DNA from: an uncultured Roseivirgaceae bacterium
GTDB lineage: Bacteria > Bacteroidota > Bacteroidia > Cytophagales > Cyclobacteriaceae
Direction of reading: 5' to 3'
DNA: 22,466 nucleotides
Assembly (NCBI GenBank): GCA_964537095.1
Contig: CAZHZR010000023.1
Coordinates: forward strand, 1-22,466
The position numbers and the translations under genes are program-made. Shown here in pieces: positions 5,011-22,190 of the stretch. The notes under the pieces are model-generated. The model was not told the origin of the DNA. It did no database searches and saw only the letters and a program-made list of their open reading frames with translations. Each line of letters starts with the position of its first letter. Position 1 is the stretch's first letter.

Positions 5011-5306
5011 ATCAGTAGGACCACTTGCATGTTATCAAAATGGCAAGGGAAATACAAGTTCGCCGATAAAATTCAATTCCTGAAAGAAACAGGTGTTTTT
5101 ATTGCGTTAAATGTTGTCTGATAAAGGTTGAATCAGGATCTGATAATCAGGCATTTTCCCGAATTTATTTAACTAATCTTGGGCAATTGATTTAGATTTG
5201 AAACCAGGTCTAAAATTTAATCTTTAAAGTTTGTGACCGGCAACGATTGTACCCTTTGCTCTTTCAAGAATTACCAAAGGCAGGGATTCTATCCTTATCT
5301 AATTTT

Positions 5307-7277
5307 ATGAAAAGACTTATTCTATTATTTTTTATATTATCGATCTATAGTTGCAAAAGTGACGACCAGGAAGATACAGTTAATGATCTAACCATTGAAT
5401 CTATAAGCGTAGGTTCCACCTATCTCCAACCTGACGGACAGCATCATAATGTTCCCACCAACCTGGCCATTGTGATGAAGTTTAATTTTACCATTGAACG
5501 TTCCTCTGTAGATCAAAACATCAAACTCCTGGATAGCGACGGAAAGCCGATTGGCCTGGCTTTCTCATATTCCAATGAAGATAAAACTATTTCTGCACTT
5601 CCGAGCTCAGAACTTGCGAACAATAGCGAGTACACCTTGCAGGTGGGACCGGTAAAGGCTGCCAATGGAGTTGAGTTCGCAGGAGCAAATTTTTCCTTCC
5701 GCACAGGACAGGCCATGCTTCGGCTGGAGTTAATTCAAATCGATGACCAAAGCTTAAACAGTTCCGGTAGAATCCTGGATGTGAACAGAGATTTTCTGAT
5801 TACAGCTAAGTTTTCAAATGCATTAAACAGCACCAGCTCTTTTGCCGATGTTGTTGCCATTAGCGGTAAAAATGGCAGTATAGACCTGAACTTTGAGCTA
5901 TCAGACAATAACAAGACTTTGCTCATAAGGCCTGCTTCTGAATTGGAAGGATTGTCAAAGTATACACTAGATATCTCTGATGAATTGGGCGGGGATGAAG
6001 AATTTATTTTCGATGGTTTTAGCAAGCAGTTTTATACTGCGGTGGATTCCACTCCAAAGTTTCCAAAGCTTTCCGATGAAGATCTGTTGACGCTGGTACA
6101 GGAGCAGACATTTAGATATTTCTGGGATTTCGCACATCCTTCCAGTGGTTTAGCGAGAGAAAGAAACAGTTCCGGAGACATTGTCACCTCGGGCGGCTCA
6201 GGATTTGGTATCATGACCATACCCGTAGGCATAGAAAGAGGTTTTATTACAAGGAAAGAAGGTGTGGAACGCATTGAAAAAATCGTGGACTTCCTTACTG
6301 CTGCTGAACGGTTTCATGGCGCATGGCCACACTGGCTAGATGGGGTAACTGGAAAAGTAGTACCGTTTAGCACCAAAGACAATGGTGCCGATTTGGTGGA
6401 AACCGCTTTTCTGGTACAAGGTCTACTCACGGTTCGGCAATACCTTCGCGAATCGGATTTACAGGAAGCTTCCATTATTGATAAAATTAACTTTTTATGG
6501 GAAACCGTAGAATGGGACTGGTTTACCAAAGGCGGCGAAAGTATTCTCTACTGGCACTGGTCACCAAACTACGGTTGGGAGATGAACCATCACGTCGCCG
6601 GCTGGGATGAATCACTCATCGTGTATGTACTTGCCGCTTCCTCTCCTACCCACAGCATCGATGCCGAAGTTTACCATCAAGGCTGGGCTGGCAATGGAAA
6701 TATGGCAAATGGTAAAGAATTCTATGATATTACGCTGCCCCTGGGTCCGGATTATGGAGGTCCTATGTTCTTCTCCCACTATTCATTTTTGGGTTTAGAT
6801 CCCAGAAACCTGGAAGACACTTACGCTAAATACTGGGACCAGAATGTGAGTCATGCCCTGATCAACCAGCATCACGCTGTTGCCAACCCAAAAGACTATG
6901 TTGGATATAGTGCGGCCAGTTGGGGCTTTACAGCCAGCGACAATCACAGTGGCTATTCGGCCCACTCACCATCCAATGATCTCGGTGTCATTACTCCAAC
7001 GGCTGCTTTGTCTTCCATGCCTTATACTCCGGAGCTTTCCATGGAGGCGCTTCATTATTTTTATTACGTCATGGGCGATAAGCTTTGGGGCGAATATGGC
7101 TTTTATGATGCTTACAATCCTACCGAAGACTGGTATGCAGACTCTTACCTGGCAATAGACCAAGGCCCCATAATTTTAATGATAGAAAACTACCAGACAG
7201 GGCTGCTTTGGGATTTGTTTATGTCAAATCCTGAAATAAAAAATGGTTTGGAAAAACTGAGTTTTTCGAGCTTTTAA
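5307..7277 (+). CDS. Secreted lipoprotein with two N-terminal SbsA-type Ig-like domains and a DUF3131/GH144-like catalytic domain of the endo-beta-1,2-glucanase family, often annotated as 'glucoamylase family protein'.
   Basis: The ORF track starts at 5247, but the lipoprotein signal MKRLILLFFILSIYSC begins at 5307, so that is the more likely start. Two roughly 100-aa beta-rich repeats end in ...FSFRT and ...FSKQFYT, a pattern typical of SbsA Ig-like domains. The C-terminal 430 aa are clearly paralogous to the next gene (FRYFWDFAHPSSGLARER..SGGSGFGIMTIPVGIERGFITR...ERFHGAWPHWLDGVTGKV...DLVETAFLVQGL...GLDPRNL). The GH144 family assignment is from memory of DUF3131 proteins, not from a search. 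Confidence 0.65.
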   Translation: MKRLILLFFILSIYSCKSDDQEDTVNDLTIESISVGSTYLQPDGQHHNVPTNLAIVMKFNFTIERSSVDQNIKLLDSDGKPIGLAFSYSNEDKTISALPSSELANNSEYTLQVGPVKAANGVEFAGANFSFRTGQAMLRLELIQIDDQSLNSSGRILDVNRDFLITAKFSNALNSTSSFADVVAISGKNGSIDLNFELSDNNKTLLIRPASELEGLSKYTLDISDELGGDEEFIFDGFSKQFYTAVDSTPKFPKLSDEDLLTLVQEQTFRYFWDFAHPSSGLARERNSSGDIVTSGGSGFGIMTIPVGIERGFITRKEGVERIEKIVDFLTAAERFHGAWPHWLDGVTGKVVPFSTKDNGADLVETAFLVQGLLTVRQYLRESDLQEASIIDKINFLWETVEWDWFTKGGESILYWHWSPNYGWEMNHHVAGWDESLIVYVLAASSPTHSIDAEVYHQGWAGNGNMANGKEFYDITLPLGPDYGGPMFFSHYSFLGLDPRNLEDTYAKYWDQNVSHALINQHHAVANPKDYVGYSAASWGFTASDNHSGYSAHSPSNDLGVITPTAALSSMPYTPELSMEALHYFYYVMGDKLWGEYGFYDAYNPTEDWYADSYLAIDQGPIILMIENYQTGLLWDLFMSNPEIKNGLEKLSFSSF

Positions 7278-7344
7278 TACCAGAGGGTACTACGCCGGAT
7301 AATGACTTCGTGAAAGAAAATTTGAGATCTAAAACTCATAAACT

Positions 7345-8706
7345 ATGAAAAAACAATTTATGCTCCTTTTTACAATTTGCGCAGGAATGTTTGCCGCCTG
7401 CACCGGTACTAAAACCGAAGAAAGAGGAGAAGAAACAAACATTGCTGTGGGTATTGATAGTATTTCCAATGACTCTTTGCTCAACCTGGTACAATATCAG
7501 ACATTTCAATATTTCTACGAGAATGGAGAACCTACTTCGGGTCTGGGGCGGGAAAGAACGCATATGGATGGAGAATACCCTCAAAATGATCAAAATGTAA
7601 TAACTACTGGCGGTTCTGGATTTGGTATAATGGCACTTATCGTAGGAATTGAAAGAGGCTTTATCACGCGTGATCAAGGTGTAAAACGTTTTCAGCGAAT
7701 TGTCAACTTTTTGGATACCGTAGAACGCTTCCATGGTGTATGGTCGCATTGGATAGATGGTGAAACAGGAAAAGTGAAAGCATTTAGCAAAAAAGATAAT
7801 GGTGGCGATCTGGTCGAAACTGCCTTCCTTGTCCAGGGGCTGATCACGGCGCGAGAATATTTAAAGACCGGGAATGAGGAAGAAAAAGCCCTGGCCAGCA
7901 AAATTGATGGGCTGTGGAGAGGTGTTGAATGGGACTGGTATACCAAAGGAGAGGATGTACTGTATTGGCACTGGTCTCCGGAGTATGAGTGGGAGATGAA
8001 CTTCCCCATTGGAGGCTATAACGAATGCCTGATCACTTATGTATTAGCAGCCTCCTCGCCTACCTATCCCATTGACCCAGCAGTTTACCATAAAGGATGG
8101 GCTAGAAATGATTCAATCATGAACGATACCACTATTTACGGCTATGAAACCGTATTGGACTATTACGAATACAGCGATGAACCGGTTGGTCCATTGTTCT
8201 GGGCGCAATATTCCTTTCTGGGATTGGATCCGCGGAATCTTAAAGATAAATATGCAGATTATTGGAAGCTGGTTCAGAATCATGCGCTGATTAATTATGA
8301 GCATGCTGTACAGAACCCACACAACTACGAAGGATATGGCCAAAAAGTATGGGGCCTCACCGCAAGTTATTCACCCGATGAAGGATACGCCAATCACATG
8401 CCTACACACGACCTTGGCGTCATCTCACCCACTGCCGCCTTATCCTCCTTCCCCTATACACCAGAACAAAGCATGGCATTTTTGCGATTTTTATATACAG
8501 AGGCTGACACCCTGGTAGGAGCTTATGGCCCTTACGATGCTTTTAGCATTGAAAAAAATTGGTACACCCCGCGCTACCTGGCGCTGGATCAGGGAACGAT
8601 TCCTGTCATGATTGAAAACCATCGGACCGGTTTACTTTGGGATCTATTTATGTCGGCCCCTGAGATCGAAACTGGTCTTAAAAAGCTAGGGTTTACATCC
8701 TACTGA
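7345..8706 (+). CDS. DUF3131/GH144-like glycoside hydrolase lipoprotein, a paralogue of the upstream gene.
   Basis: It has a lipoprotein signal, MKKQFMLLFTICAGMFAAC. It shares conserved blocks with the 5307..7277 product along its whole length: YQTFQYFYENGEPTSGLGRER, TGGSGFGIMALIVGIERGFITR, ERFHGVWSHWIDGETGKV, DLVETAFLVQGL, WHWSPEYEWEMN and GLDPRNLKDKYADYW. Confidence 0.7.
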   Translation: MKKQFMLLFTICAGMFAACTGTKTEERGEETNIAVGIDSISNDSLLNLVQYQTFQYFYENGEPTSGLGRERTHMDGEYPQNDQNVITTGGSGFGIMALIVGIERGFITRDQGVKRFQRIVNFLDTVERFHGVWSHWIDGETGKVKAFSKKDNGGDLVETAFLVQGLITAREYLKTGNEEEKALASKIDGLWRGVEWDWYTKGEDVLYWHWSPEYEWEMNFPIGGYNECLITYVLAASSPTYPIDPAVYHKGWARNDSIMNDTTIYGYETVLDYYEYSDEPVGPLFWAQYSFLGLDPRNLKDKYADYWKLVQNHALINYEHAVQNPHNYEGYGQKVWGLTASYSPDEGYANHMPTHDLGVISPTAALSSFPYTPEQSMAFLRFLYTEADTLVGAYGPYDAFSIEKNWYTPRYLALDQGTIPVMIENHRTGLLWDLFMSAPEIETGLKKLGFTSY

Positions 8707-8744
8707 GTTACTGAATTATTGATTTTGTTAAAAAGCCACTTGAC

Positions 8745-10994
8745 ATGAACTACGTAAACCACCTATCGAAAGCCATCTGCTTGGTAATTCTTTCTCTCCT
8801 TTTTTTAATCCCTTCGCAAGCGCAGCCTTCTCAGCAATTTGGTCAGGATGCGGAAATCGAATCAAAGATCGACTCCCTGCTGGCGCTTATGACGCTTGAA
8901 GAGAAAATCGGGCAGCTTACCTTGTACACCAGCGACATCGACGTAACAGGCCCTACCATTCGTGAGGGATATAAAGAAGATATCAGGAAAGGAAATGTTG
9001 GTTCAATTTTTAATGCTTATGGGGCTGATTATACCAGGTCGCTCCAAAAGATGGCCGTTGAAGAAACCCGTTTGAAAATACCACTGCTGTTCGGATATGA
9101 TGTAATCCATGGGCATAAAACAATTTTCCCAATGCCACTGGGAGAGTCTGCAAGTTGGGATCTGGAGGCTATAGAAAGATCGGCACAAATCGCCGCTGCT
9201 GAAGCTTCTGCAGAAGGATTGCACTGGACTTTTGCTCCCATGCTGGATGTAGCGCGTGATCCCAGGTGGGGCAGAGTTGCGGAAGGAGCAGGAGAAGATA
9301 CATATCTTAGCACCAAAATAGCAGTTGCCAGAATAAAAGGCTTTCAAGGTGAGAATTTACGTGATCTCAACACCTTGTTAGCTTGCGCGAAGCACTTTGC
9401 AGCCTATGGAGCCGCACTGGCCGGGAGGGACTATAATACGGTAGACATGTCGGACCGGGTTTTGCGTGAAGTTTACTTTCCACCATTTAAAGCGGCTGTT
9501 GAGGCCGGAGTAGCGACTTTTATGACATCTTTCAATGAAGTAGACGGAGTACCCGCTTCCGGCAGTAAATATTTGATGACCGATGTACTCAAAGAAGAAT
9601 GGGGTTTTGATGGATTTATAGTTACAGATTATACCTCCATCAACGAAATGGTGCCTCATGGCGTGGTGGCCAATGAGAAAGATGCAGGCGAGCTTGCGAT
9701 CAATGCAGGGGTTGACATGGATATGCAGGGGGGTGTTTACCAGGAGCATTTGGCAGATTTAGTGAAGGAGGGAAGAGTCGCCGAATCTCAAATAAATGAA
9801 TCAGTAAGGAGAATTCTAAGGATGAAATACGCGCTCGGCCTTTTTGACGACCCCTACCGCTATTCTGATACAAAGCGTGAAAAGGAAGTTGTGATGAGCA
9901 AAGAGCATTTGGCTGCAGCCAGGGATATTTCCAGAAAATCTATTGTGTTGCTAAAAAATGAAGGCAACACCCTGCCGCTAAAAAAGAACACAAAAACAGT
10001 CGCTGTTATCGGCCCGTTGGCTGACAGCAAGCGTGACATGATAGGTTCCTGGTCGGCCGCCGGAGACTACACAAAAGCCGTTACTTTACTGGAAGGCATC
10101 AAAGCCGCTGTGCCTTCTTCTACCAAAGTGCTTTATGCGAAGGGGGCCAACATCAATGATGATACAACCAAATGGATTGATGAAGCAGTTAAGGTCGCCA
10201 AAAAGGCAGATGTGATAATACTAGCAATAGGCGAAGACGCACAAATGAGTGGAGAGGCAGCCAGTAGATCTAATATAGATCTACCCGGGGTTCAACTGGA
10301 GTTGGCCAAAGCGATGCAAAAAACAGGCAAACCCGTTGTGGCCGTGCTGATGAACGGCAGACCTTTAACCATCACATGGTTAGATGAAAACATCCCATCT
10401 ATCCTTGAAACCTGGTTTTTAGGAACCCAGGCAGGACACGCTATCGCAGATGTTATATTCGGAGACTACAATCCCTCCGGTAAATTACCTGTTACCTTTC
10501 CTCGCAGCGTAGGTCAAGTTCCTATTTTTTACAATAATAAAAATACTGGCAGACCCATGTCTGATGAAAAATACACATCAAAATATCTGGATATTTCAAA
10601 TGAGCCATTATATCCTTTTGGTTACGGCTTGAGCTACGCTAATTTTACCTATAGTAATCTAGTGGCAGGCAAATCCGAGTATAAAATGGGGGAACCCATA
10701 GAAGTAGCCGTGACTGTTTCGAATAGTGGCAAAGTAGCAGGGGAAGAAGTGGTGCAACTTTACGTCAGAGATCTTGTAGGAAGTGTAACGCGACCTGTTA
10801 AGGAGTTAAAAGGATTTCAGAAAATTAAACTGGAACCAGGCGCATCGCAACAAGTGCGGTTTACCCTCACTGCAAAAGATCTTGCCTTCTACACCAGAAA
10901 TATGGATTTCGCAGCCGAGCCCGGCGCTTTCAAAGTATATGTGGGAACAAATTCCAGAGATGTATTGGAAGCTGATTTTGAATTAAGAGAATAA
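8745..10994 (+). CDS. bglX: Glycoside hydrolase family 3 beta-glucosidase, BglX-like and periplasmic.
   Basis: It has a signal peptide. The GH3 N-domain blocks are present: KHFAAYGAALAGRDY, SFNEVDGVPASGSKYLMTDVLKEEWGFDGFIVTDY (the catalytic Asp lies in the VTDY nucleophile motif), the GH3 C-terminal alpha/beta sandwich and a fibronectin-like C-terminus. The 749-aa length is typical of BglX-type enzymes. Confidence 0.9.
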   Translation: MNYVNHLSKAICLVILSLLFLIPSQAQPSQQFGQDAEIESKIDSLLALMTLEEKIGQLTLYTSDIDVTGPTIREGYKEDIRKGNVGSIFNAYGADYTRSLQKMAVEETRLKIPLLFGYDVIHGHKTIFPMPLGESASWDLEAIERSAQIAAAEASAEGLHWTFAPMLDVARDPRWGRVAEGAGEDTYLSTKIAVARIKGFQGENLRDLNTLLACAKHFAAYGAALAGRDYNTVDMSDRVLREVYFPPFKAAVEAGVATFMTSFNEVDGVPASGSKYLMTDVLKEEWGFDGFIVTDYTSINEMVPHGVVANEKDAGELAINAGVDMDMQGGVYQEHLADLVKEGRVAESQINESVRRILRMKYALGLFDDPYRYSDTKREKEVVMSKEHLAAARDISRKSIVLLKNEGNTLPLKKNTKTVAVIGPLADSKRDMIGSWSAAGDYTKAVTLLEGIKAAVPSSTKVLYAKGANINDDTTKWIDEAVKVAKKADVIILAIGEDAQMSGEAASRSNIDLPGVQLELAKAMQKTGKPVVAVLMNGRPLTITWLDENIPSILETWFLGTQAGHAIADVIFGDYNPSGKLPVTFPRSVGQVPIFYNNKNTGRPMSDEKYTSKYLDISNEPLYPFGYGLSYANFTYSNLVAGKSEYKMGEPIEVAVTVSNSGKVAGEEVVQLYVRDLVGSVTRPVKELKGFQKIKLEPGASQQVRFTLTAKDLAFYTRNMDFAAEPGAFKVYVGTNSRDVLEADFELRE

Positions 10995-12009: not shown

Positions 12010-12834
12010 CTACTTTTCCAGCTTCAACAGTCTGTTATTCATTTGGCTTAACTGGCTTTCAACAGTCATCAGTCTGCTCTCCAGCAAAGAGGGAGGCGAA
12101 ACGTGTTGAGACCATACCCCTACTGCCTGCCAGATTTCCAGCATTTCTTCGCTTGACACTATCCTGTTTTCATAGGCCGAATTGTCAGCTTTTAATAAAA
12201 TCGCCTTTTCGTCCACAGACAGTAATCGTCTTGCAATTATCCCCTTCGGCGTTACCACCACAAAAACCGATTCGAGCTTGATTTTTTTAGGAATCACTTC
12301 GAGTTTTTTGGCAAGCAGCACATCTCCATCGTGTATGCCCCGGTCATGATAAAACATTTCATCGCCGCTGTGTACGAAAGCCCGCAGTATTCCTGCGGTA
12401 TCTGCTGGCAGAAAAATTCTTTTTAAGTTAATGATGTAATCCTTGTTCTGAAGATTGACAATATATTCCAGTACATTGTCCTTTTCAACCAATGGAACAC
12501 CTTCCTTGTAATTTCCCAAAAGAAAACCCTTTTCCTTTACGTTTGCTTTGATGCTTTTCCCCAAGGCAGGAGGCATTTGCGTCGGATCAAATTCTCCTTT
12601 TAATATATCAAAGCTATAGAGTTCGTTTACAGTTAACTCCTTCCGAAGAAGGGCATCCGTAGACAAGCTAAAGTGGTTGGCGATAGCTATGATTGTGTCA
12701 ATCTTAGGCTCTGACCTCCCCTCTTCATAGGCTCCTACACTTGGCCTGGCAAGACTAAACAAATCAGCAAATGCAGCTTGCGATAACTTTCGTACCGTCC
12801 TGATCTTCTTAATGTTTTTTCCAATGAATGACAT
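12010..12834 (-). CDS. XRE-family HTH transcriptional regulator with a C-terminal LexA/cI-type S24-like domain whose catalytic dyad appears to be substituted.
   Basis: The N-terminal HTH_3-type block is IKKIRTVRKLSQAAFADLFSLARPSVGAYEEGRSEPKIDTIIAIANHFSLSTDALL. The C-terminal region aligns by eye to the LexA/UmuD/cI cleavage domain: AFVHSGDEMFYHDRGIHDGDVLLAKK...VVTPKGIIARRL versus UmuD SGDSM...ISDGDLLIV...TVKKL. The Ser nucleophile position is Glu (SGDEM, not GDSM) and the general-base Lys position is Arg (ARRL, not VKKL). The gene is the only minus-strand gene and lies divergent to the pspA-containing cluster. Confidence 0.75.
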   Translation of the reverse strand: MSFIGKNIKKIRTVRKLSQAAFADLFSLARPSVGAYEEGRSEPKIDTIIAIANHFSLSTDALLRKELTVNELYSFDILKGEFDPTQMPPALGKSIKANVKEKGFLLGNYKEGVPLVEKDNVLEYIVNLQNKDYIINLKRIFLPADTAGILRAFVHSGDEMFYHDRGIHDGDVLLAKKLEVIPKKIKLESVFVVVTPKGIIARRLLSVDEKAILLKADNSAYENRIVSSEEMLEIWQAVGVWSQHVSPPSLLESRLMTVESQLSQMNNRLLKLEK

Positions 12835-13021
12835 ATCTAAAAAATAATTCTACTTTTTTGAGCATCGCTATTGTTATTAGCAACAAAATTTCTTAAACTT
12901 ACGTATAAATTATTAAAACGCTAAAATTATTTACCGTAAAAAACTAACCGATTCTGTAAAAAAGGAAAAATTTTATTAAGATTATATTAAATCAACCAAT
13001 CAACATTTCAACCTTACCAAC
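12835..13021. promoter_or_regulatory. AT-rich 187-bp divergent intergenic region that must hold promoters for both the XRE/S24-like regulator (-) and the ybjN-like/pspA cluster (+). It contains small palindromes that may be operators.
   Basis: The region is AT-rich. There is an imperfect palindrome TTGTT-N6-AACAA at 12870-12885 and a TTTAC-C-GTAAA palindrome at 12930-12940. No exact TAnnTTTG -7 box was found on either strand, so TSS positions are unknown. Confidence 0.4.
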
Positions 13022-13417
13022 ATGAACCATTATTACGACAAAGTTAAAGAATACTTGCTGGAGGCGGGCTGCACTATAAAACATGAAAATGAAGGCGAAG
13101 GCCTTTTTGTAGTAGACTATGAAAATATGGGCATCAGCAATCTGGTAATAGGATGTGCAGATCCGATCTTAATAGTTGAACAATTCATCTTTGAAATCAA
13201 CGAAGAATGTGTAGAAGTTTTCAAAAGCCTTCTACAAAAAAACAGAGAAATCATTGCCGGTGCCTTTGTAATAGACGATTCTGGAGAGAAGGTGCTTTAT
13301 AGAAATACGCTTATGCTTGAGAACCTCGATCTGAACGAACTAGAAGGCACATTTAACGCGTTGGGGCTAATGCTTAGCGAGTATTCTGAAGACCTTATCC
13401 GCTTCGCCAGCAAGTAA
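13022..13417 (+). CDS. Small cytoplasmic YbjN-like protein with a type III secretion chaperone-like fold. It is the first gene of the pspA cluster.
   Basis: It is a 131-aa acidic protein with an alpha/beta pattern (LFVVDYENMGISNLVIGCADPILIVEQFIFEI ... AGAFVIDDSGEKVLYRNTLMLENL). This resembles YbjN / putative sensory-transduction-regulator family members, which are often encoded beside PspA. The family call is tentative. Gene reality is supported by spacing and codon usage. Confidence 0.5.
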   Translation: MNHYYDKVKEYLLEAGCTIKHENEGEGLFVVDYENMGISNLVIGCADPILIVEQFIFEINEECVEVFKSLLQKNREIIAGAFVIDDSGEKVLYRNTLMLENLDLNELEGTFNALGLMLSEYSEDLIRFASK

Positions 13418-13495
13418 TTAGTCGCAGGACATAAAATAATTCTCAGATAAATTTTAAATTTTTTAATATTTTTATTAAACTTAACCTTTGAAGAC

Positions 13496-14227
13496 ATGAA
13501 CAACATATTTAAAAGACTATTTAAAATAGGACAAGCCGAGGCAAATTCGGCGGTAGACCAGCTTGAAAACCCCATCAAATTGACCGAACAAGGAATCCGG
13601 GACATGAAGGAAAATCTCGACAAGAGCCTTCAATCACTGGCGCAGGTAAAAGCGTTGTCTATCAGAGCAAGGAACGATTTCGAAACTTATAACGACGCTG
13701 CCCAAGACTATGAAAGAAAGGCTTTGATGCTTTTAAAAAAGGCACAGGCGGGTGAAATGAAGTCCGAAGAAGCTGACCGGCTGGCAAGTGAGGCTTTGGT
13801 AAAAAAAGAAGCCAGTACCAGCCAAGCCAACCGCTCATTGGCAGAAAAGGAGAAGTTCGACAAAAGCATATCTGAACTCGATCAGAACATAAAAACGATC
13901 AAAAGCACCATCAGCAAGTGGGAAAATGAGCTCAAGACACTCAAGGCACGGGTTAAGGTAAGCGATGCCACCAAAAGGCTCAACAAGCAACTTGCTCAAA
14001 TTGATAGCAGCAGTACAGTCTCCATGTTAGAACGCATGAAAGACAAGGTGGCGGAAGAGGAAGCACTGGCACAATCCTACGCGGAAATAGCCAATGAAAG
14101 CAGAAGCATTGACGAAGAAATAGACAAGGCTTTAGAAAACACATCGGCATCTGCCAAAACATCCAATGAGCTTGCTGCTTTAAAAGCAAAACTTGGGATC
14201 AATACGGCTTCTGAAGAAAAAGAGTAA
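13496..14227 (+). CDS. pspA: PspA/IM30 (Vipp1) family protein, phage-shock protein A-like and in the ESCRT-III superfamily.
   Basis: The N-terminus MNNIFKRLFKIGQAEANSAVDQLENPIKLTEQGIRDMKENLDKS aligns with E. coli PspA [40 protein letters not shown]. The protein is entirely helical coiled coil, about 243 aa, with a C-terminal LAALKAKL that matches PspA LAQLKAKM. Confidence 0.85.
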   Translation: MNNIFKRLFKIGQAEANSAVDQLENPIKLTEQGIRDMKENLDKSLQSLAQVKALSIRARNDFETYNDAAQDYERKALMLLKKAQAGEMKSEEADRLASEALVKKEASTSQANRSLAEKEKFDKSISELDQNIKTIKSTISKWENELKTLKARVKVSDATKRLNKQLAQIDSSSTVSMLERMKDKVAEEEALAQSYAEIANESRSIDEEIDKALENTSASAKTSNELAALKAKLGINTASEEKE

Positions 14228-14270
14228 GCACATAAAGTTTCAACATTCACAATAAACCTAAAAGATAGCG

Positions 14271-14912
14271 ATGGAAGATTTATTAAAAGCAATAGTGTGG
14301 GGAGGCAATATTGTACCAACAGCACTACTGATCTTTATATTGACCTACTGGCTTATCGTGTTGATTGGTTTTATTGATATCGACAGCTTTGATATAGATA
14401 TTGATCTGGATGTTGAAACTGATGTTAACGGAGCAGGCTCAGTAGCCTGGCTCAACCATGTACTCTATTTCTTTAATCTCGGCCAGGTTCCGCTAATGCT
14501 TTTCCTGAGTTTCGTGGCCATACCTATGTGGTTCCTTGCAATCATCGCAACGGAATACCTGGTCTTCAATTCGGTGTTTTTGAGCTACCTCCTACTGATT
14601 CCGAATTTTATAATTAGCCTCTTTATCGCTAAAGTATTTACCCAGCCATTCGTGAAGTTGTTCACTGCACTCGAAAACCATGTTGATGACAACACGGAAG
14701 TAATCGGAAAAATTTGTACAGTGATCCTCAATACAACTGACGAAAAAATGGGCCAGGCCAGAGTAGAAGGCAGTGGGTCTGTAGTGCTACTCAACATTAA
14801 AACCAGAAAAGGCACTGTGCTAAATAAAGGGGAAACGGGCCTGGTGATCGACTATGTAAAAGAAAAAAGCTACTATATCATAGAGCCCTACGAAATTCAG
14901 GAATCAGTATAA
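14271..14912 (+). CDS. Inner-membrane protein of the YqiJ/NfeD type: N-terminal TM helices plus a C-terminal OB-fold. It is a flotillin partner.
   Basis: It is 213 aa, about the size of E. coli YqiJ (209 aa). Three or four hydrophobic helices are present (VPTALLIFILTYWLIVLIGFI, VPLMLFLSFVAIPMWFLAIIA, SYLLLIPNFIISLFIA). The C-terminal beta-rich NfeD-like OB-fold segment is GKICTVILNTTDEKMGQARVEGSGSVVLLNIKTRKGTVLNKGETGLVIDYVKEKSYYIIEPYE. It sits immediately upstream of a flotillin gene, the conserved yqiJ-yqiK / yuaF-floT arrangement. Confidence 0.65.
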   Translation: MEDLLKAIVWGGNIVPTALLIFILTYWLIVLIGFIDIDSFDIDIDLDVETDVNGAGSVAWLNHVLYFFNLGQVPLMLFLSFVAIPMWFLAIIATEYLVFNSVFLSYLLLIPNFIISLFIAKVFTQPFVKLFTALENHVDDNTEVIGKICTVILNTTDEKMGQARVEGSGSVVLLNIKTRKGTVLNKGETGLVIDYVKEKSYYIIEPYEIQESV

Positions 14913-15041
14913 GACAGTCACCTCCAAATATCAGCTATTTCTGCCTTGGAAGACCAGAGGTGAGACCATATCGTCTACCGGATTCATTGGGCATTCCATT
15001 GCAGATACATTCATAAAGTTTTCAACTAAAAATTAATATTC

Positions 15042-17174
15042 ATGATTCAACAAGCATCCCTTATAGTAATTATCGTGGGCTCTATCGTATTGATAGCGCT
15101 GCTGATCCTTATTTCCCGTATGTGGCACAAAGCCTCGCAGGGACAAGCGCTCGTCCGGACCGGATTAGGGGGCACCAAAGTAAGCTTTTCAGGCACCCTT
15201 GTAGTACCCGTAATCCACAGGTTAGAGGAAATGGACATCACCGTAAAAACAATTGTCATCTCCCGTACCGGAAAGGATGGCTTGGTTTGCAAAGACAATA
15301 TGCGCGCTGATATTAAGGTAACCTTTTTTATCCGCGTAAATAAAAGCATAGAAGACGTGAAGAAGGTATCCGAGTCCATTGGATGTTCCAGAGCCTCCAA
15401 TCACGAACAACTGGAAGTATTGTTTGATGCCAAGTTTTCTGAAGCCTTGAAGACAGTCGGCAAGCATTTTGAATTTGTGGAACTGTATAACAGCAGGGAC
15501 GACTTCAAGAGAGAGATCCTGCAAATTACGGGCACCGATCTGAACGGGTATATCCTGGATGACTGCGCGATTGACTATCTGGAGCAAACCAGTCTTGACC
15601 ACATGAATGAGAATAATATTCTTGACTCAGAAGGTATTAAAAAGATCATTGAACTTACCGCCAAGCAGAAAATGGCATCTAACCTGATTGAGCGTGAGAA
15701 GCAAAAAACGCTTAAAAAGCAGGATGTTGAAGCCAGAGAAGTAATTCTGTCACTTGAAAAACAATTGGCAGAAAGTGAAGAGAAACAACGCAGAGAAATT
15801 GAAAACATCAAGTCAAGAGAAGCCGCAGAAATCGAAAAAGTACGTTCTGAAGAAAGACAGAAATCTGAGCAGGCAAGAATCATCTCTGATGAACAGATTC
15901 AGGTGGCGGAACAAAATAAAGACCGGCAGGTGCTTGTAGCGCAGAGAAACAAAGAAAAGACAGATGCTATTGAGCTTGAAAGAGTAGTGCAGGCGAGAGA
16001 TCTGGAAGCCAATGAAAGGGAACGATTGGTGTCACTGGCACAGATAGAAAAAGAAAAGGCGCTGGAAATAGAGAAGAAAAATATTCAGGAGGTAATAAGA
16101 GAACGAGTAGTAGTAGAAAAAGCTACGGTAGAAGAGCAGGAAAGAATCAAAGATACCGTAGCCCATGCGGAAGCCGAAAGGTCGAAGAAAGTAGCAATTA
16201 TCAACGCGGAGCAGGAAGCGGAACAAGCCCTTGTAAAGGAAATTAAAGCCGCAGAAGCTGCTAATGATGCTGCTTTATTTCGTGCAAAACAAGCACTTGT
16301 AGATGCAGAAGCGGAAAAAAATAGCGCCGGTCTACGAGCAGAGGCCATAAAAATAATGGCAGACGCCCAAGCCGCGAAAGAAGCCGCGTTGGGTATAAGC
16401 GAGGCACAGGTAATGGAAGCAAAGGCAGCCGCTTTAACAAAACAAGGAGAGGCAGAAGCAAACGTGATCGAAGAAGCCGCTGAAGCCGAAGCAAAATCAA
16501 TTAGAATTAAAGGAATAGCACAGGCAGATGCCAATGCTAAACAAGGTGAAGCGGAAGCCATTGTAATCCGCGCGAAAGCCGAAGCAGAAGAATTGAAAGG
16601 ACAAGCGGAAGCAAGAGTGATGGAGCAGAAATTCCTGGCAGAAGCAAAAGGTATCGGAGAGAAAGCAGCAGCAATGAGCAAACTGGACGGACCTGGAAAA
16701 GACCATGAAGAATACAAACTGAGGCTTTCGAAAGAAAAGGAAATTGAACTGGCCCAAATTGATATACAGAAGGTTATAGCAGACGCTCAGGCACAGGTGA
16801 TTGGTGAAGCTTTAAAAGCTGCAAATATCGACATTATCGGAGGGGAGACTATGTTCTTCGAACAGATCATGGGCTCTATTACAAAAGGTAAAGCCGTAGA
16901 CGGTATGATTGACAACAGCAAAGCGCTGCTGGACGTTAAGAATACTTTCTTCAGTCCTAATGGCGGTTCAGATTTTAAATCGCAGTTAAAAGGCTTTATG
17001 GACAAATTCGGATTTTCTCCTGAAGACATCCGAAATCTGACTATTTCTGCCTTGCTTTTAAAGATGATGAACGGCGCCGACAGCCATCAGACTCGCTCTA
17101 GTATACAGCAGTTGAATGACCTGGCAAAATCCATCGGGGTGTCAGACAAAACGCTGGATGCCATCGGCATGTAA
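15042..17174 (+). CDS. Flotillin (SPFH/Band-7 domain; FloT/YqiK-like) with an unusually long E/A/K-rich coiled coil and a C-terminal extension.
   Basis: An N-terminal TM anchor (LIVIIVGSIVLIALLILIS) is followed by an SPFH domain (QALVRTGLGGTKVSFSGTLVVPVIHRLEEMDITVKTIVISRTG...MRADIKVTFFIRVNKSIEDVKK...FVELYNSRDDFKREI). The roughly 300-aa EA-repeat coiled coil is the flotillin hallmark. At 710 aa it is longer than the usual 500-550 aa of bacterial flotillins. Confidence 0.9.
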   Translation: MIQQASLIVIIVGSIVLIALLILISRMWHKASQGQALVRTGLGGTKVSFSGTLVVPVIHRLEEMDITVKTIVISRTGKDGLVCKDNMRADIKVTFFIRVNKSIEDVKKVSESIGCSRASNHEQLEVLFDAKFSEALKTVGKHFEFVELYNSRDDFKREILQITGTDLNGYILDDCAIDYLEQTSLDHMNENNILDSEGIKKIIELTAKQKMASNLIEREKQKTLKKQDVEAREVILSLEKQLAESEEKQRREIENIKSREAAEIEKVRSEERQKSEQARIISDEQIQVAEQNKDRQVLVAQRNKEKTDAIELERVVQARDLEANERERLVSLAQIEKEKALEIEKKNIQEVIRERVVVEKATVEEQERIKDTVAHAEAERSKKVAIINAEQEAEQALVKEIKAAEAANDAALFRAKQALVDAEAEKNSAGLRAEAIKIMADAQAAKEAALGISEAQVMEAKAAALTKQGEAEANVIEEAAEAEAKSIRIKGIAQADANAKQGEAEAIVIRAKAEAEELKGQAEARVMEQKFLAEAKGIGEKAAAMSKLDGPGKDHEEYKLRLSKEKEIELAQIDIQKVIADAQAQVIGEALKAANIDIIGGETMFFEQIMGSITKGKAVDGMIDNSKALLDVKNTFFSPNGGSDFKSQLKGFMDKFGFSPEDIRNLTISALLLKMMNGADSHQTRSSIQQLNDLAKSIGVSDKTLDAIGM

Positions 17175-17191
17175 ATCTTCGTAAGCATAGA

Positions 17192-17230
17192 ACAGGATTT
17201 GGTCTCCAGACCATATCCTGTATTTTTTCT
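17192..17230 (+). terminator. Strong Rho-independent terminator, a GC-containing hairpin followed by a T-run, 18 nt downstream of the flotillin stop codon.
   Basis: The stem is ACAGGATTTGGTCT (17192-17205) paired with AGACCATATCCTGT (17208-17221), 13 bp with one mismatch. It is followed directly by ATTTTTTCTT (17222-17231). Confidence 0.7.
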
Positions 17231-17255
17231 TAAAATTACTTATTAATACCCCTTT

Positions 17256-20200
17256 ATGGAGAATGAAGAAGCAATAGTACCTGAAGAAAACATGATGGAG
17301 GCAGGTAGTTATGAGATACTGCGTAACCGCCTCACCAAGTCGGGCGCAGACCTCAGTGCGAGGATAAAAAAGCTGAATGAACTGCGCAAAGAAGTCTTCG
17401 GCACAATTGATACCAAGCTGGTAACCACCGATAGAATAAACACGGAACATAATTGTGTGCCTCAGGATATGATCCCCGTCGGCCATTTCTTCATTTTTGG
17501 CTACAATGTACACCTGGGCCTGAAATCCCAGATCGAACTCCCCGACGTTTTCAGCATCTATAGATACAAAGATCATGGATTTCATCAGGAAGATTATACG
17601 TTGATCAACGACGAAACATTCATAGACGACTTCCAAAAACTCTATAAATATTATAAAGACACCCAATTCATAAAATTCTCAAAAGCCGGAAATAATCTGT
17701 ATATGGTATTCCGGATCGGAAAAAGCCTTACGGACATCAAAGCTTTCAAATGGACTTTTTCTGGAGGTAAACTTACTTATATTGATAACAGAAGTGAGCA
17801 TGAATATCGATTTCCAGATCAATATGCTTTTCGCTGGAAACAAGCTACCCGCGACCAGCACAGGCAGGGTGCTCATCCTCACATCAGTATTGAAGACAGA
17901 CTTTTTGTAGAGACAATAGGTGGCGACCTTACCATTAAAATTGAAGACAATACCGAGCAAGGCAAGGGTATTTATACCGAATCTGTAGAAAATAAAGACC
18001 AAACACTGGACGACGCTGATATAAGGTATGCTGTGTTAGGGAATTTGGTTTTATTAAAAATTAAACCTTATCTGGAAGAAAACCATCGACATTTGGTTTT
18101 TAACGCTAAAATCAAAGAGGTAAAAAGAGTTGATGCCATTAAAGATGCGTGTGTATTACTACCAGATGATCAGGGGATTTTGTTTCCAAACGGTTATTAC
18201 CTTCAAACCGGTGAATACAAGCTGTTCGAATTGCAAAATGAAAACATGCTATTCGAAAAAAGAATAGATAGTCCTAATGGCGAAGACTTTCTCTATGTTT
18301 TCTACAACAAACAACAAAGCTTTTACTTGTTGCTCCCGTACAATATCATATCGCAAAAAATTGACACTCCTATTTCATGCCACGGTTTTTCAATATTCGA
18401 GAACGGCGAGATGTGTTTTTTCAAAGGGGAAAATGACCCAAGTATGCACCATGCCATCCAGGTATGGCAGACGCCCTTTGTGGGGCCAAACTTTCAACTT
18501 CATCAATCGCACGATTCCTATTTGTTCAAAGTAGGAAACAAGGAAATTGTAAGAGCCATGGCGGAAGCCAACGAAATTTTCACCCTCATCCATAAAGATG
18601 ACTCCTATTCCGGGTTGTACCACGACCTTGTAAAAGCATCTACAACAATTCTGGACACTTATCATTGGCTGAAAAAAGATGAGACTTTCAGGCTTTCAGA
18701 ACCCCTGCAGGAAATACGAGAGACAGCCAATGCTGCCATCGATGAATTTGAGAAAGTATCAAATATCAAAAACAATACGGAACAACGAGTACTGGAAGTA
18801 TTGGGTGAAGCCGACGAGTTGATCCGAAAAATAAAGATAAAAAAGGCAGAGCATATCTTAGATTATGTTGACAATCTATCCTCAATCAGAAAAATTAGCG
18901 GGGAAGTTATTTCTTTAAAAGATCTAAGATATGTGGATGCAAAAAAAATTGAGGCATATGAGGATGAGCTGGCAAAATTCAGCATCAATGTTTCTACCAA
19001 CTGTGTCAATTTTCTTTTAAAGGACAACGCACTTGTTCCTTATAATAAAAAGGTTGATGAGCTTGGCGGTGCCGTGGAAAAAGCAGGCAAGCTGCTTGAT
19101 ATTACAAAGCTAGAGGAAGAAGCTGCTCAAATTGCCGCTGAGCTAGAGATGCTGATTGAGATCGTTAGCAATCTGAAGATCAATGATGCAACTGAAACCA
19201 CCAGGATCATCGACAAAATATCTGCAATATACGCGAGCTTTAATCAAATTAAAGCCAACATCAGCAGGCGGCGCAAAGAACTGCTGACAATTGAAGGGAA
19301 AGCAGAATTCAACGCACAACTGAAGCTGGTTGACCAAAGTATCATCAATTATATCGATATCAGTAGCACTCCTGAAAAATGCGATGAGTACCTGACCAGG
19401 ATAATGGTACAACTCGAAGAGCTGGAGGGCAAGTTTTCTGAATTTGATGAATATGTAAATAAAGTTGGTGAGAAACGTGAAGAGGTCTATAACGCCTTTG
19501 AATCCCGTAAAATCAATCTGATAGAGGCCAGAAACAAAAGAGCAAATAACTTACAGGAGGCGGCTGAACGTATTTTAAAAGCTGTGAAGAGCAGAATTTC
19601 ACGGTTTAATGAGGTGACCGAGATCAATGGTTATTTTGCGTCAGACCTGATGATTGAAAAGCTGAAAAACATTGTTAAAGAGCTTCAGGATTTGGGAGAC
19701 AATGTCAAGGGTGACGACATCCAAAGCAAGCTCAAGACTGTACGGGAAGATACGGTAAGGCAGTTGAAAGACAAGTCGGAACTTTTCGTCGCCGGCGAGA
19801 ATATTATAAAATTCGGTCCCTTTCAATTCTCTGTAAATACGCAGCCTCTGGAACTTTCCATGGTGAATAAAAATGGCAGGTTATATTTTCATTTAGGAGG
19901 AACTAATTTCTTCGAAGAAGTTGTGAACGAAGAGATATTGCACGCAAAACCAGTGTGGGAACAGATATTAATCTCTGAAAACCCTGATGTTTATCGCGCT
20001 GAGTTTCTAGCTTATGTTATTTTTACTGAAGCAAAAGAAAATCCGGTCGACAGTACGACACTGTTTGAATTATATAAACTTCCCTTTGAAAAGCTACTAA
20101 ACCTGGTGCAGGAAAAAATGGCTACGCGCTTTAGTGAAGGTTATGTAAAAGGGGTTCATGATCTGGATGCAGCGCGAATCCTGCAGGCATTGATTGCCAT

Positions 20201-22190
20201 GTATGAAAACGCCGACCTATTGAGGTATGACACAATCTCAAGGGCATGCGCGATGCTTTTCTGGAGCTTGCAGGTATCGGAAGAAAAGAAAAAGACACTG
20301 CATCATCAATTAAAAGGGGCCGGATATATTTTACAGGTATTCCCAAACACCGACGCATTTGAGGACATCAGACAACTCATTAAATCCGAAATTTCAGATT
20401 TCGTGCTCAGCACAAAATTGTTTGAACCTCATGTAGTTGCGGATGCCACCGAGTTTTTATTTTATGAGTTAACCCGCGACGATAAATTCATTATTCACGG
20501 AGAAGCAGCAAAGCTATATACTGACTTTATCGACTTTCTTAAGAAAAATAATGCCATTGATAAGTATGAGGCCTCGACCAAAGCCTTACAGGAAGATGCA
20601 ATTCTAAAATACAAGCTGATTAAAAGCTGGTTAACCGCCTATGTAGCCACGAACAAAAATAATGAATCTTTTATTTTTCTTCAGGAAACTGCAGTCTTGC
20701 TATTAACGGGAGGATATGACGATAAGCATATAATCAATGTTAAACTTGAAGAAATGCTGGATGGACTCACCGGCTCTCACCCGTTGATTTCAGATAAAAA
20801 ATACCACCTCAACTTTAATTTGTTCCTACAAAAGCTACGCGCTTACTCCCTGGAAGTGGTTCCCAGATTCAGTGAGTTTACTGTACTTAAAAAGAATACC
20901 AGCAGCGAATTTGCGAAAGAACTGAGACTGGATGAGTTCAAGCCCAGGGTCATGTCCAGCTTCGTAAGGAATCAGCTGATTGACAAAGTATACCTACCAC
21001 TTATTGGCGCCAACCTTGCGAAACAAATTGGCACCGCCGGAGAATCTAAAAGAACCGACCTTATGGGTATGTTACTTTTAATTTCTCCGCCTGGGTATGG
21101 AAAAACTACCCTTATGGAGTATATCGCTGACAGGCTAGGTATTGTTTTCATGAAAATTAATGGTCCGGCAATTGGTCATGAAGTTACCTCTGTAGATCCT
21201 TCAGAAGCAAAGAACGCAGGCGCCAGACAGGAACTTCTAAAATTAAACCTGGCATTCGAAATGGGCGATAATGTGATGATTTACCTGGACGACATCCAGC
21301 ATTGCAACCCGGAATTTCTGCAGAAATTCATCAGCTTGTGTGACGGACAGCGGAAGATTGAGGGAGTTTACAAAGGCAGAAGTAAAACCTATGATTTCCG
21401 GGGTAAGAAAGTCTGTGTAGTGATGGCAGGAAACCCTTATACTGAGAGTGGTGAGAAGTTTAGAATTCCAGATATGCTTGCCAACAGGGCAGATATATAT
21501 AATCTCGGGGATATTATCGGCGACAGTGCAGACGTGTTTAATCTAAGCTTTATTGAAAACAGCCTTACCTCCAATCCCACCCTTGGGAAGCTGGCAACAA
21601 AGAGCCATAAAGATGTGCTCACCCTTGTAAAAATTGCAGAAACTGGCTCTAAAGAAGGTTTTACGTTTGAAGCAAATCATACCACTCAGGAGATCAATGA
21701 ATACGTAAACGTGCTTCAAAAGCTATTAAAAATAAGGGATATTATATCGCGGGTGAACCAGGAATATATTCATTCGGCCGGACAGGCTGATGAATATAGA
21801 ACAGAACCGCCTTTTAAGCTCCAGGGATCTTACAGAAATATGAATAAAATAGCAGAAAAAATATCGCCGTTAATGAACGATGAGGAACTGCAGATTTTGA
21901 TTAATAGCCACTATGAAAGTGAGGCTCAAACGCTGACAACCGGGGCGGAAGCCAATCTTTTAAAGTTTAAGGAGATCATTGATATCCTTTCCCCTTCGGA
22001 AAAAAATCGCTGGGAGGAAATTAAGAGGATGTTTCAAAAAAATCAAAAACAAAAAGGCTTTGGCAATAACAACATGGCGATGATGATAGATCAAATTGAA
22101 GGTGTAAATAAAGCATTATTAGGCATTCAACATGCGCTTACCTCCAGCACAAACGGACAGGATGCAACCAAACCTAAAGTCGAAAACTGA
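17256..22190 (+). CDS. Giant (1,644 aa) multidomain protein. It has an N-terminal coiled coil, a beta-rich domain of about 370 aa, a helical/coiled-coil region of about 800 aa and a C-terminal MoxR/dynein-type AAA+ ATPase domain.
   Basis: It is a single uninterrupted ORF. Walker A is LISPPGYGKTTLMEYIADRLG, with GYGKTT at aa 1280-1285 (nt 21093-21110). Walker B is VMIYLDDIQ (aa ~1340-1348, DD at nt 21288-21293). It also has KKVCVVMAGNPYTESGEKFRIPDMLANRADIYNL (aa 1384-1417). This last motif is the NP sensor-1 / 'P..LL.RF' sensor-2 signature of the MoxR/midasin/McrB/dynein AAA+ clade (compare MoxR ATQNP..EGTYPLPEAQLDRF). No GTPase G3/G4 motifs and no SMC hinge were seen. Confidence 0.8.
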   Translation: MENEEAIVPEENMMEAGSYEILRNRLTKSGADLSARIKKLNELRKEVFGTIDTKLVTTDRINTEHNCVPQDMIPVGHFFIFGYNVHLGLKSQIELPDVFSIYRYKDHGFHQEDYTLINDETFIDDFQKLYKYYKDTQFIKFSKAGNNLYMVFRIGKSLTDIKAFKWTFSGGKLTYIDNRSEHEYRFPDQYAFRWKQATRDQHRQGAHPHISIEDRLFVETIGGDLTIKIEDNTEQGKGIYTESVENKDQTLDDADIRYAVLGNLVLLKIKPYLEENHRHLVFNAKIKEVKRVDAIKDACVLLPDDQGILFPNGYYLQTGEYKLFELQNENMLFEKRIDSPNGEDFLYVFYNKQQSFYLLLPYNIISQKIDTPISCHGFSIFENGEMCFFKGENDPSMHHAIQVWQTPFVGPNFQLHQSHDSYLFKVGNKEIVRAMAEANEIFTLIHKDDSYSGLYHDLVKASTTILDTYHWLKKDETFRLSEPLQEIRETANAAIDEFEKVSNIKNNTEQRVLEVLGEADELIRKIKIKKAEHILDYVDNLSSIRKISGEVISLKDLRYVDAKKIEAYEDELAKFSINVSTNCVNFLLKDNALVPYNKKVDELGGAVEKAGKLLDITKLEEEAAQIAAELEMLIEIVSNLKINDATETTRIIDKISAIYASFNQIKANISRRRKELLTIEGKAEFNAQLKLVDQSIINYIDISSTPEKCDEYLTRIMVQLEELEGKFSEFDEYVNKVGEKREEVYNAFESRKINLIEARNKRANNLQEAAERILKAVKSRISRFNEVTEINGYFASDLMIEKLKNIVKELQDLGDNVKGDDIQSKLKTVREDTVRQLKDKSELFVAGENIIKFGPFQFSVNTQPLELSMVNKNGRLYFHLGGTNFFEEVVNEEILHAKPVWEQILISENPDVYRAEFLAYVIFTEAKENPVDSTTLFELYKLPFEKLLNLVQEKMATRFSEGYVKGVHDLDAARILQALIAMYENADLLRYDTISRACAMLFWSLQVSEEKKKTLHHQLKGAGYILQVFPNTDAFEDIRQLIKSEISDFVLSTKLFEPHVVADATEFLFYELTRDDKFIIHGEAAKLYTDFIDFLKKNNAIDKYEASTKALQEDAILKYKLIKSWLTAYVATNKNNESFIFLQETAVLLLTGGYDDKHIINVKLEEMLDGLTGSHPLISDKKYHLNFNLFLQKLRAYSLEVVPRFSEFTVLKKNTSSEFAKELRLDEFKPRVMSSFVRNQLIDKVYLPLIGANLAKQIGTAGESKRTDLMGMLLLISPPGYGKTTLMEYIADRLGIVFMKINGPAIGHEVTSVDPSEAKNAGARQELLKLNLAFEMGDNVMIYLDDIQHCNPEFLQKFISLCDGQRKIEGVYKGRSKTYDFRGKKVCVVMAGNPYTESGEKFRIPDMLANRADIYNLGDIIGDSADVFNLSFIENSLTSNPTLGKLATKSHKDVLTLVKIAETGSKEGFTFEANHTTQEINEYVNVLQKLLKIRDIISRVNQEYIHSAGQADEYRTEPPFKLQGSYRNMNKIAEKISPLMNDEELQILINSHYESEAQTLTTGAEANLLKFKEIIDILSPSEKNRWEEIKRMFQKNQKQKGFGNNNMAMMIDQIEGVNKALLGIQHALTSSTNGQDATKPKVEN

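Follow-up and report, generated by a model that had tools for sequence, protein, structure and literature searches.

A giant DUF3686 AAA+ protein linked to flotillin and YqiJ-like genes: a PspA-carrying operon of an uncultured Roseivirgaceae bacterium and its relatives

Does a giant AAA+ protein whose gene follows those of a PspA-family protein and of a flotillin serve the first of these membrane systems, the second or both? This question is raised by a locus of an uncultured Roseivirgaceae bacterium (Bacteroidota, Cytophagales, Cyclobacteriaceae) that lies in a stretch of 22,466 nucleotides, called the window hereafter (GenBank assembly GCA_964537095.1, contig CAZHZR010000023.1, positions 1 to 22,466). 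As read from the open reading frames (ORFs), the block at 12010-22190 comprises one minus-strand gene opposite five plus-strand genes that are separated by gaps of 78, 43, 129 and 81 bp. An earlier note on this DNA had described this layout, including the divergent regulator and the final protein of 1,644 amino acids (aa), and the ORF coordinates agree with it throughout. Our comparison of related loci indicates that it is flotillin and the YqiJ-like protein that accompany the giant protein nearly everywhere. The six genes of the window are as follows.

12010-12834, minus strand: regulator of 274 aa with an XRE-type helix-turn-helix (HTH) domain (aa 5-66) and a degenerate S24/LexA-like C-terminal domain
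13022-13417, plus strand: gene 1, small chaperone of the CesT/Tir type (YbjN-like), assigned by Pfam
13496-14227, plus strand: gene 2, PspA/IM30-family protein (ESCRT-III superfamily), assigned by Pfam PspA_IM30
14271-14912, plus strand: gene 3, short NfeD-like membrane protein of the YqiJ/YuaF type, assigned by profile match and hydropathy
15042-17174, plus strand: gene 4, YqiK-type flotillin of 710 aa, assigned by profile match to Escherichia coli YqiK
17256-22190, plus strand: giant protein of 1,644 aa of the DUF3686 family, with Pfam matches to DUF3686, DUF7902 and AAA/AAA_5

At least 588 matches to the giant protein were confirmed in 185,579 species genomes. The loci of the best 80 and of three further matches were analysed (genome set), and the counts come only from loci with enough upstream DNA. 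The flotillin gene is located directly upstream of the giant gene and in the same direction in 63 of 66 loci, i.e. 30/32 in Bacteroidota and 33/34 in the other phyla (Planctomycetota, Verrucomicrobiota, Desulfobacterota and Bacillota). A YqiJ-like gene is found upstream in 59/66 loci (Bacteroidota 30/32; other phyla 29/34). By contrast, PspA is encoded upstream in only 22 of 65 loci, all of them from Bacteroidota (22/31, versus 0/34 in other phyla). The CesT gene and the regulator gene are each found upstream in 21/65 loci, with the same restriction (21/31 and 0/34 for both). The five operon genes and the regulator occur together in 21 of the 31 Bacteroidota loci, so that the genes are co-conserved, as the earlier note had expected.

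A second set (metagenome set) results from a scan led by the giant protein of the plasmid pQBR103 and provides 61 counted loci belonging to a second clade. Flotillin is encoded upstream in 57/61 of them, and a YqiJ-like protein also in 57/61. In the pooled sets, 120 of 127 loci combine flotillin with the giant ATPase, and 50 of 121 combine PspA with it. Because of this difference, flotillin and YqiJ, not PspA, are the near-obligate partners of the giant ATPase; the view of the earlier note, in which the giant protein is hard-wired to a pspA-flotillin cluster, is weakened as far as pspA is concerned. The triad formed by YqiJ, flotillin and the giant protein recurs in five phyla and again in the metagenome set, and its synteny is far beyond chance. 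All-against-all clustering of the neighbouring ORFs of the genome set revealed no other gene family widely conserved beside the triad; neighbours in the metagenome set were screened by targeted queries only. Furthermore, the giant protein of the window is 52% identical to its homologue from Blastopirellula and 46% identical to that from Bacteroides, a cross-phylum pattern which suggests that the cassette may have moved horizontally between phyla. Identity reaches 52-53% with homologues from Planctomycetota and Desulfobacterota, and only 46% with those from Bacteroides and Tannerella (e.g. loci L020, L022, L078 and L080).

The earlier note regarded this architecture as undescribed. However, Ravi et al. 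(mSystems 2024; bioRxiv 2020; PMC11237479) describe a class of CesT/Tir-PspA operons that also encode a YqiJ/YuaF protein with three transmembrane (TM) segments, a TM-Band-7-flotillin and an AAA+ ATPase. Their Table S3 includes the same six genes in Dokdonia donghaensis, with the divergent regulator (cHTH+protease) and with ANH61663.1 as the PspA gene. Gene content and order are identical to those of the window, in which the CesT_Tir_1 and PspA genes are 78 bp apart. The window locus is a further member of this published, computationally defined operon class and not a new kind of system. The same authors indicate that abbreviated flotillin-YqiJ-ATPase operons devoid of PspA are more widespread, which agrees with our linkage counts, and that some Proteobacteria add a phospholipase D (PLD). 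They suggest that this operon acts in a chaperone-like manner when complexes linked to the membrane are assembled, and favour a reading in terms of 'sub-membrane dynamics'; in a separate section, they draw the analogy with Snf7/VPS4 for bacterial associations of PspA with AAA+ ATPases in general. Neither TelA nor rhomboid is mentioned by these authors. In comparison with that work, what is new here is the linkage counts, the dead catalytic dyad of the S24 domain, the Asp-Asp Walker B motif and a TelA variant that excludes PspA. A related association of PspA with band-7/FloT, NfeD and HTH regulators is reported in Acidobacteriota by Popp et al. 2022 (PMC9239133). Our literature search found no paper mentioning DUF3686 and no experimental study of the DUF3686 ATPase or of the operon class, which is known from comparative genomics.

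The gene identities put forward in the earlier note (XRE/S24, YbjN-like, PspA, YqiJ/NfeD and flotillin) are all borne out by Pfam and hhalign profiles. Direct searches of Pfam, NCBIfam and PDB sequences gave nothing significant for genes 3 and 4, and both were identified with profiles built from syntenic orthologues. The gene-4 profile matches E. coli YqiK (hhalign Prob 100, E=5.6e-42, 31% identity over 396 columns), and this match spans aa 7-426 of the flotillin, membrane anchor and SPFH region included. The protein comprises an N-terminal TM segment (aa 1-30, the only one detected by hydropathy), an SPFH domain, a long Glu/Ala-rich coiled coil and a C-terminal helical domain. Pfam Band_7 is matched by 2/27 gene-4 orthologues and not by the window flotillin itself; close homologues are named 'flotillin family protein' at NCBI. 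Long ORFs found in all loci on the strand opposite the coiled coil (15042-17174, minus strand, in the window) are composition artefacts and not genes; they make up a cluster of 544 members in the all-against-all comparison. For gene 3, the profile aligns with that of E. coli YqiJ over 176 columns (hhalign Prob 96, E=4.6e-9), and Pfam YqiJ_N is matched by 8/25 gene-3 orthologues (best E=4.5e-7). The protein has three hydrophobic segments according to hydropathy and a C-terminal beta-rich soluble domain. Against PDB, the profiles of genes 3 and 4 gave only weak matches to QmcA and YuaF, among them one of gene 3 to the structure of the YuaF C-terminal domain (2k14, E=0.095).

The third member of the triad, the giant protein, is modular:

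17349-18665, plus strand: DUF3686 domain (aa 32-470), a family-specific N-terminal module (Pfam E=6.4e-190)
19026-19280, plus strand: DUF7902 (aa 591-675), a helical module in the central helical region (Pfam E=1.6e-26)
21072-21488, plus strand: AAA+ core with Walker A, Walker B, sensor-1 and a candidate Arg finger

Its N-terminal 700 aa match 940 clusters (50% identity), nearly all of which are proteins of 1,600-1,900 aa. The AAA/AAA_5 match of Pfam covers aa 1273-1397, and the AAA+ fold of the core is confirmed. This core contains Walker A SPPGYGKT (aa 1277-1284), Walker B LDDIQH (D1345, D1346), sensor-1 N1393 and the candidate Arg finger R1411; Walker A, N1393 and R1411 are invariant among homologues down to ~29% identity. 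Across the homologues, Walker B carries an invariant Asp-Asp (DD), not Asp-Glu, and the presumed pore-loop segment, KINGPAIGH, has no aromatic residue. Because of these two properties, the protein may be a slow, switch-like or chaperone-like ATPase and not a processive unfoldase. In the structure model, a beta-hairpin separates the Walker B strand/alpha3 from the sensor-1 strand. Such a pre-sensor-1 hairpin is the mark of the pre-sensor-1-insert AAA+ clades and is absent from the classical clade that includes Vps4. The Pfam scores are a near-tie (AAA 31.1 bits, AAA_5 26.8 bits) that settles no clade, and the core is neither Vps4-type nor clearly MoxR. The 'MoxR/dynein-clade AAA+' of the earlier note is thus upheld as an AAA+ module by its fold and invariant motifs, but not as to its clade. 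No VWA partner gene is conserved near the giant gene in 84 loci, the single one seen (in Pontibacter) being ~9 kb away. The giant protein is soluble, its hydropathy profile being devoid of hydrophobic segments. No protease domain was detected in it by Pfam, and no DNA-binding or nuclease domain was detected either. No MIT domain was found by Pfam at E<=0.01, a search that a divergent helical bundle could escape. The DUF3686 profile has no relative in PDB, and self-hhalign revealed no internal sequence repeats in this domain.

Distant relatives of the giant protein (30-39% identity) are encoded by plasmids and chromids, and their neighbourhoods are variable. On pQBR103 from Pseudomonas fluorescens SBW25, a set of genes encoding YjfI, PspA, rhomboid, DUF2491, DUF350, DUF1190 and glutathionylspermidine synthase lies directly upstream of the triad. 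This co-directional block of ten genes (L087, 84437-97641), which joins a yjfIJKLMC-like PspA/polyamine set to the triad, is a possible experimental entry point. A YjfJ-type PspA dyad is located upstream and in the same direction in 28/56 metagenome loci, 27 of them with YjfI. The YjfI-YjfJ PspA dyad, known from the E. coli yjfIJKLMC-type operon together with polyamine genes, is reused in the second triad clade, whereas the window has CesT_Tir_1 instead of YjfI and no polyamine genes. The window-type and YjfJ-type PspA proteins are homologous (hhalign Prob 97.8, E=7e-13); no similarity between CesT_Tir_1 and YjfI is detectable by hhalign.

Other elements of these neighbourhoods are also facultative. 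A PLD gene is found downstream in 12/61 metagenome loci, and PspA is encoded in 11 of those 12. In the YjfI-PspA clade, genes for a rhomboid protease and for PLDc_2 (HKD phospholipase D-like) often follow the ATPase gene (L094, L096, L106, L113, L117, L155 and others). TelA is encoded downstream of the giant gene in 8/61 metagenome loci, none of which encodes PspA, and it may fill the same slot as PspA. Between the two proteins, hhalign detects no homology. TelA (toxic anion resistance, PF05816) was seen at L091:14855-16633 and in L101-L104, L107, L108, L121 and L141. In Vibrio campbellii, the triad is followed by PLDc_2 and TelA; in Proteus mirabilis, a divergent LemA-TPM pair is located upstream of it; in Streptomyces and Deinococcus, the triad is on its own, and it was also found in Halomonas. 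The facultative neighbours (PLD, rhomboid, TelA and LemA/TPM) are all related to membranes or lipids. Since, in addition, PspA is joined with two chaperone families, a functional coupling of the cassette to membrane-stress effectors is well supported, and the membrane-stress theme of the earlier note recurs in distant lineages. Some of the replicons concerned call for a comment: two PLSDB records of Proteus mirabilis 'plasmids' (NZ_OL790811.1 and NZ_OL790812.1; L090) are ~4.08 Mb long and look like mislabelled chromosomes, and the Vibrio, Photobacterium and Halomonas matches in PLSDB (1.7-2.1 Mb) are probably second chromosomes or chromids. In Pontibacter (L002), a PLDc_2 gene neighbours that of the regulator, and a gene for a small PLDc_N protein separates those of PspA and YqiJ.

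In Bacteroidota, the additional genes are those of a chaperone, of PspA and of the regulator. Gene 1 matches CesT_Tir_1 over its full length (E=4.9e-54) and YbjN more weakly (E=1.7e-8). CesT is always encoded alongside PspA in Bacteroidota loci and is predicted to be its partner. Gene 2 matches PspA_IM30 over aa 3-232 (E=1.8e-38, 132.8 bits for a cutoff of 33.9); its scores against the NCBIfam PspA and LiaH models are far under the cutoffs, which indicates that it is not the equivalog of E. coli PspA or of LiaH. The regulator gene lies upstream, in divergent orientation, in 21/22 PspA-carrying Bacteroidota loci. Its product matches Pfam HTH_3 (E=9e-9) and Peptidase_S24 (E=1.3e-5), and its C-terminal domain aligns with E. 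coli LexA (hhalign Prob 83, E=1e-5). In this alignment, LexA S119 pairs with a residue other than Ser and K156 with Arg, and no Ser or Lys is conserved in the S24-like domain across eight regulator orthologues. Because the catalytic Ser and Lys are gone, a loss common to the orthologues, the regulator is, judging from its sequence, a pseudo-protease and not a self-cleaving repressor of the LexA type. The following features are located between the regulator and CesT genes:

12835-13021, no strand: AT-rich divergent intergenic region, presumed site of both promoters and of the operator
12871-12886, within the divergent intergenic region: palindrome TTGTTATTAGCAACAA, identified by reading the sequence

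Palindromes that contain ATTAGC, such as TATTAGCTAATA, are also present in the equivalent intergenic regions of L010, L035, L037 and L064, which include several Flavobacteriia. They are weak candidates for the operator, and their occurrence by chance in AT-rich DNA is conceivable. A sigma-70 promoter scan of the window gave the level of shuffled sequences, the model being ill-suited to Bacteroidota. Scanning of the window revealed no terminator-like site on the plus strand within the gene block.

How could these components work together? The reading that we favour, tentatively and with slightly less than an even chance of being correct, is that the locus is a flotillin-centred module for membrane remodelling and stress, in which the giant AAA+ protein remodels the flotillin scaffold and PspA is a facultative effector. 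Starting from the gene identities, synteny statistics and motif states reported above, we infer each physical interaction and the direction of remodelling in the following scheme. The conserved core would be a cassette of three genes encoding a YqiJ/NfeD-like membrane protein, a YqiK-type flotillin and a giant soluble AAA+ protein. Like other SPFH proteins, the flotillin would assemble into an oligomeric scaffold, anchored in the membrane at its cytoplasmic face, to which YqiJ could dock via its C-terminal OB-like domain. The giant protein would oligomerise through a C-terminal AAA+ ring, and its DUF3686 module and long helical region would bind the flotillin assembly, which it may remodel by assembling, opening or disassembling it. 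In Bacteroidota, including the window, the cassette would have gained a CesT-type chaperone, PspA and a divergent XRE repressor. PspA would be under the transcriptional control of this XRE/pseudo-S24 repressor, whose catalytically dead S24-like domain is probably a sensor or a dimerisation domain. PspA, restrained by the chaperone, would be a membrane-sealing effector delivered at flotillin sites.

Known systems offer partial precedents for this scheme. Short NfeD-like proteins are paired with flotillins in yqiJ-yqiK of E. coli and in yuaF-floT of Bacillus subtilis; genes 3 and 4 encode homologues of YqiJ and YqiK, with the same order and orientation. However, E. coli yqiJ-yqiK has no adjacent genes for a giant ATPase, PspA or a chaperone, and YqiK has 553 aa versus 710 aa for the window flotillin. 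Like the window, ydjFGHI of B. subtilis encodes an SPFH protein (YdjI) together with a PspA-family protein, and YdjI is needed to bring PspA to the membrane; its further partners, YdjG and YdjH/TPM, are not those of the window (CesT and YqiJ), it lacks an AAA+ ATPase, and its SPFH protein belongs to a different subfamily. By analogy, a role of the SPFH protein in recruiting PspA is plausible in the window operon. Also at the inner membrane, HflK/HflC-FtsH pairs an SPFH-family cage with an AAA+ protease (PMC13220708). However, FtsH is a membrane-anchored zinc protease (PMC9020784), unlike the soluble giant protein, in which no protease domain was detected.

Several observations weigh against a flotillin-centred function. 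The giant gene lacks an upstream flotillin gene in L019, L029 and L038 and in about four metagenome loci. Moreover, E. coli and many other bacteria use yqiJK without the giant ATPase, which indicates that flotillin does not generally depend on it, and a PspA or TelA protein encoded elsewhere in the genome could be the true substrate. The giant-type ATPase is listed as 'Betapropeller+Coiled-coil+AAA-ATPase' in Table S3 of Ravi et al. (PMC11237479), but the beta-propeller fold of DUF3686 is a label from the literature that neither our profile search nor our repeat search confirms. Finally, the AlphaFold2 model of the flotillin, built from a shallow alignment, has a pLDDT of 56 (<50 in the SPFH region) and is unusable; therefore, the identity of this protein rests on the hhalign comparison with YqiK. 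An extension of the flotillin-centred reading goes further and is appreciably more doubtful: the DUF3686 protein would be the first dedicated ATP-driven remodeller of flotillin (SPFH) assemblies, coupling microdomains to interchangeable sealing effectors, namely TelA or PspA, the latter with either of two unrelated chaperones, and the whole would be a flotillin/ESCRT-III/AAA+ repair machine spreading horizontally as a cassette.

The alternative that survives best is the one proposed in the earlier note, in which the giant AAA+ protein is a dedicated disassemblase or recycler of PspA polymers, i.e. a functional analogue of Vps4, flotillin and YqiJ being only its membrane platform. We consider it unlikely. 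In its favour, the recruitment of PspA dyads with two dissimilar chaperone families (22/65 and 28/56 loci) points to a real functional coupling, and triad-only loci could have PspA in trans. The niche is also open: according to a 2025 review (PMC7619361), a Vps4-like ATPase 'appears absent in bacteria', in agreement with the earlier note, according to which bacterial PspA has no established ATPase dedicated to it. The general Snf7/VPS4 analogy of Ravi et al. (PMC11237479) goes in the same direction and, as in ESCRT-III/Vps4 (CdvB/CdvC), an ESCRT-III-superfamily gene and an AAA+ ATPase gene share one operon. However, PspA is not encoded in cis in 71 of the 121 informative loci, including 34/34 from outside Bacteroidota in the genome set, and the ATPase is accompanied by flotillin much more frequently than by PspA. 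In eight loci, PspA is replaced by TelA, never found together with it. Furthermore, the AAA+ protein is unlike Vps4 in its pre-sensor-1 hairpin (in the model), its invariant DD Walker B, its GPAIGH pore-loop region without aromatic residue and its lack of an MIT domain detectable by Pfam. Taken together, linkage counts, TelA substitution and these features weaken the idea of a Vps4 analogue.

The cassette could also be a mobile, membrane-acting anti-phage or abortive-infection module, in which the ATPase would be a sensor or switch, and PspA, PLD and TelA would be effectors or means of self-protection; this we regard as improbable. Its distribution is patchy, homologues of different phyla share as much identity as those of Bacteroidota do, and copies are carried by megaplasmids and chromids. 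PLD-family and XRE-type regulator genes, both found as neighbours here, are common in defence islands. In Pontibacter, an integrase, group II intron reverse transcriptases and transposases are encoded just downstream. The HTH domain of the regulator weakly matches the capH, RmrA and control-protein models of PADLOC, but such matches are generic to XRE domains. No core protein matches a model of PADLOC-DB v2, apart from a weak AAA match to mad8 (E=9e-5), and no homologue was found in 50,697 phage records. Moreover, the window operon is flanked by glycan-utilisation genes and not by defence genes.

Finally, a DNA-repair ATPase whose linkage to membrane genes is incidental, as suggested by the Pfam PF12458 description ('ATPase involved in DNA repair'), by the name 'DNA repair ATPase' that NCBI propagated from it and that most of the at least 4,936 homologues in the protein collection bear, and by weak RuvB_N P-loop matches, is so improbable that it was rejected, as no supporting domain or neighbour was found: the RuvB match is confined to ~45 residues surrounding Walker A and is far under the cutoff, the neighbours are membrane proteins in 120/127 loci, the genome set shows no conserved repair gene in the vicinity, and the database name, devoid of contextual support, is probably misleading.

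The window genes located before 11975 are unrelated to the operon; they encode FG-GAP, PAP2, a 7TMR-DISM sensor, two proteins with PF10091 glycoamylase domains, GH3 and Exo_endo_phos. The two PF10091 'glycoamylase' domain proteins and the GH3 glycosidase (5247-10994, plus strand) likely constitute a glucan-utilisation cluster. The 7TMR-DISM sensor (3052-5010, plus strand; DISMED2 and 7TM) has an unusual architecture: such sensors would be expected to have a kinase or cyclase as output, but this one carries an IS1595-type zinc ribbon in its C-terminal part.

The operon family touches two questions: by what means bacteria disassemble their ESCRT-III-like polymers (PspA, Vipp1) in the absence of Vps4, and how SPFH scaffolds are opened or turned over. 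Likely genetically workable hosts include P. fluorescens SBW25 with pQBR103, Proteus mirabilis, Vibrio campbellii, and isolates of Flavobacterium and Bacteroides. This family can be viewed as a concrete and widespread candidate for the remodelling of both PspA polymers and SPFH scaffolds.

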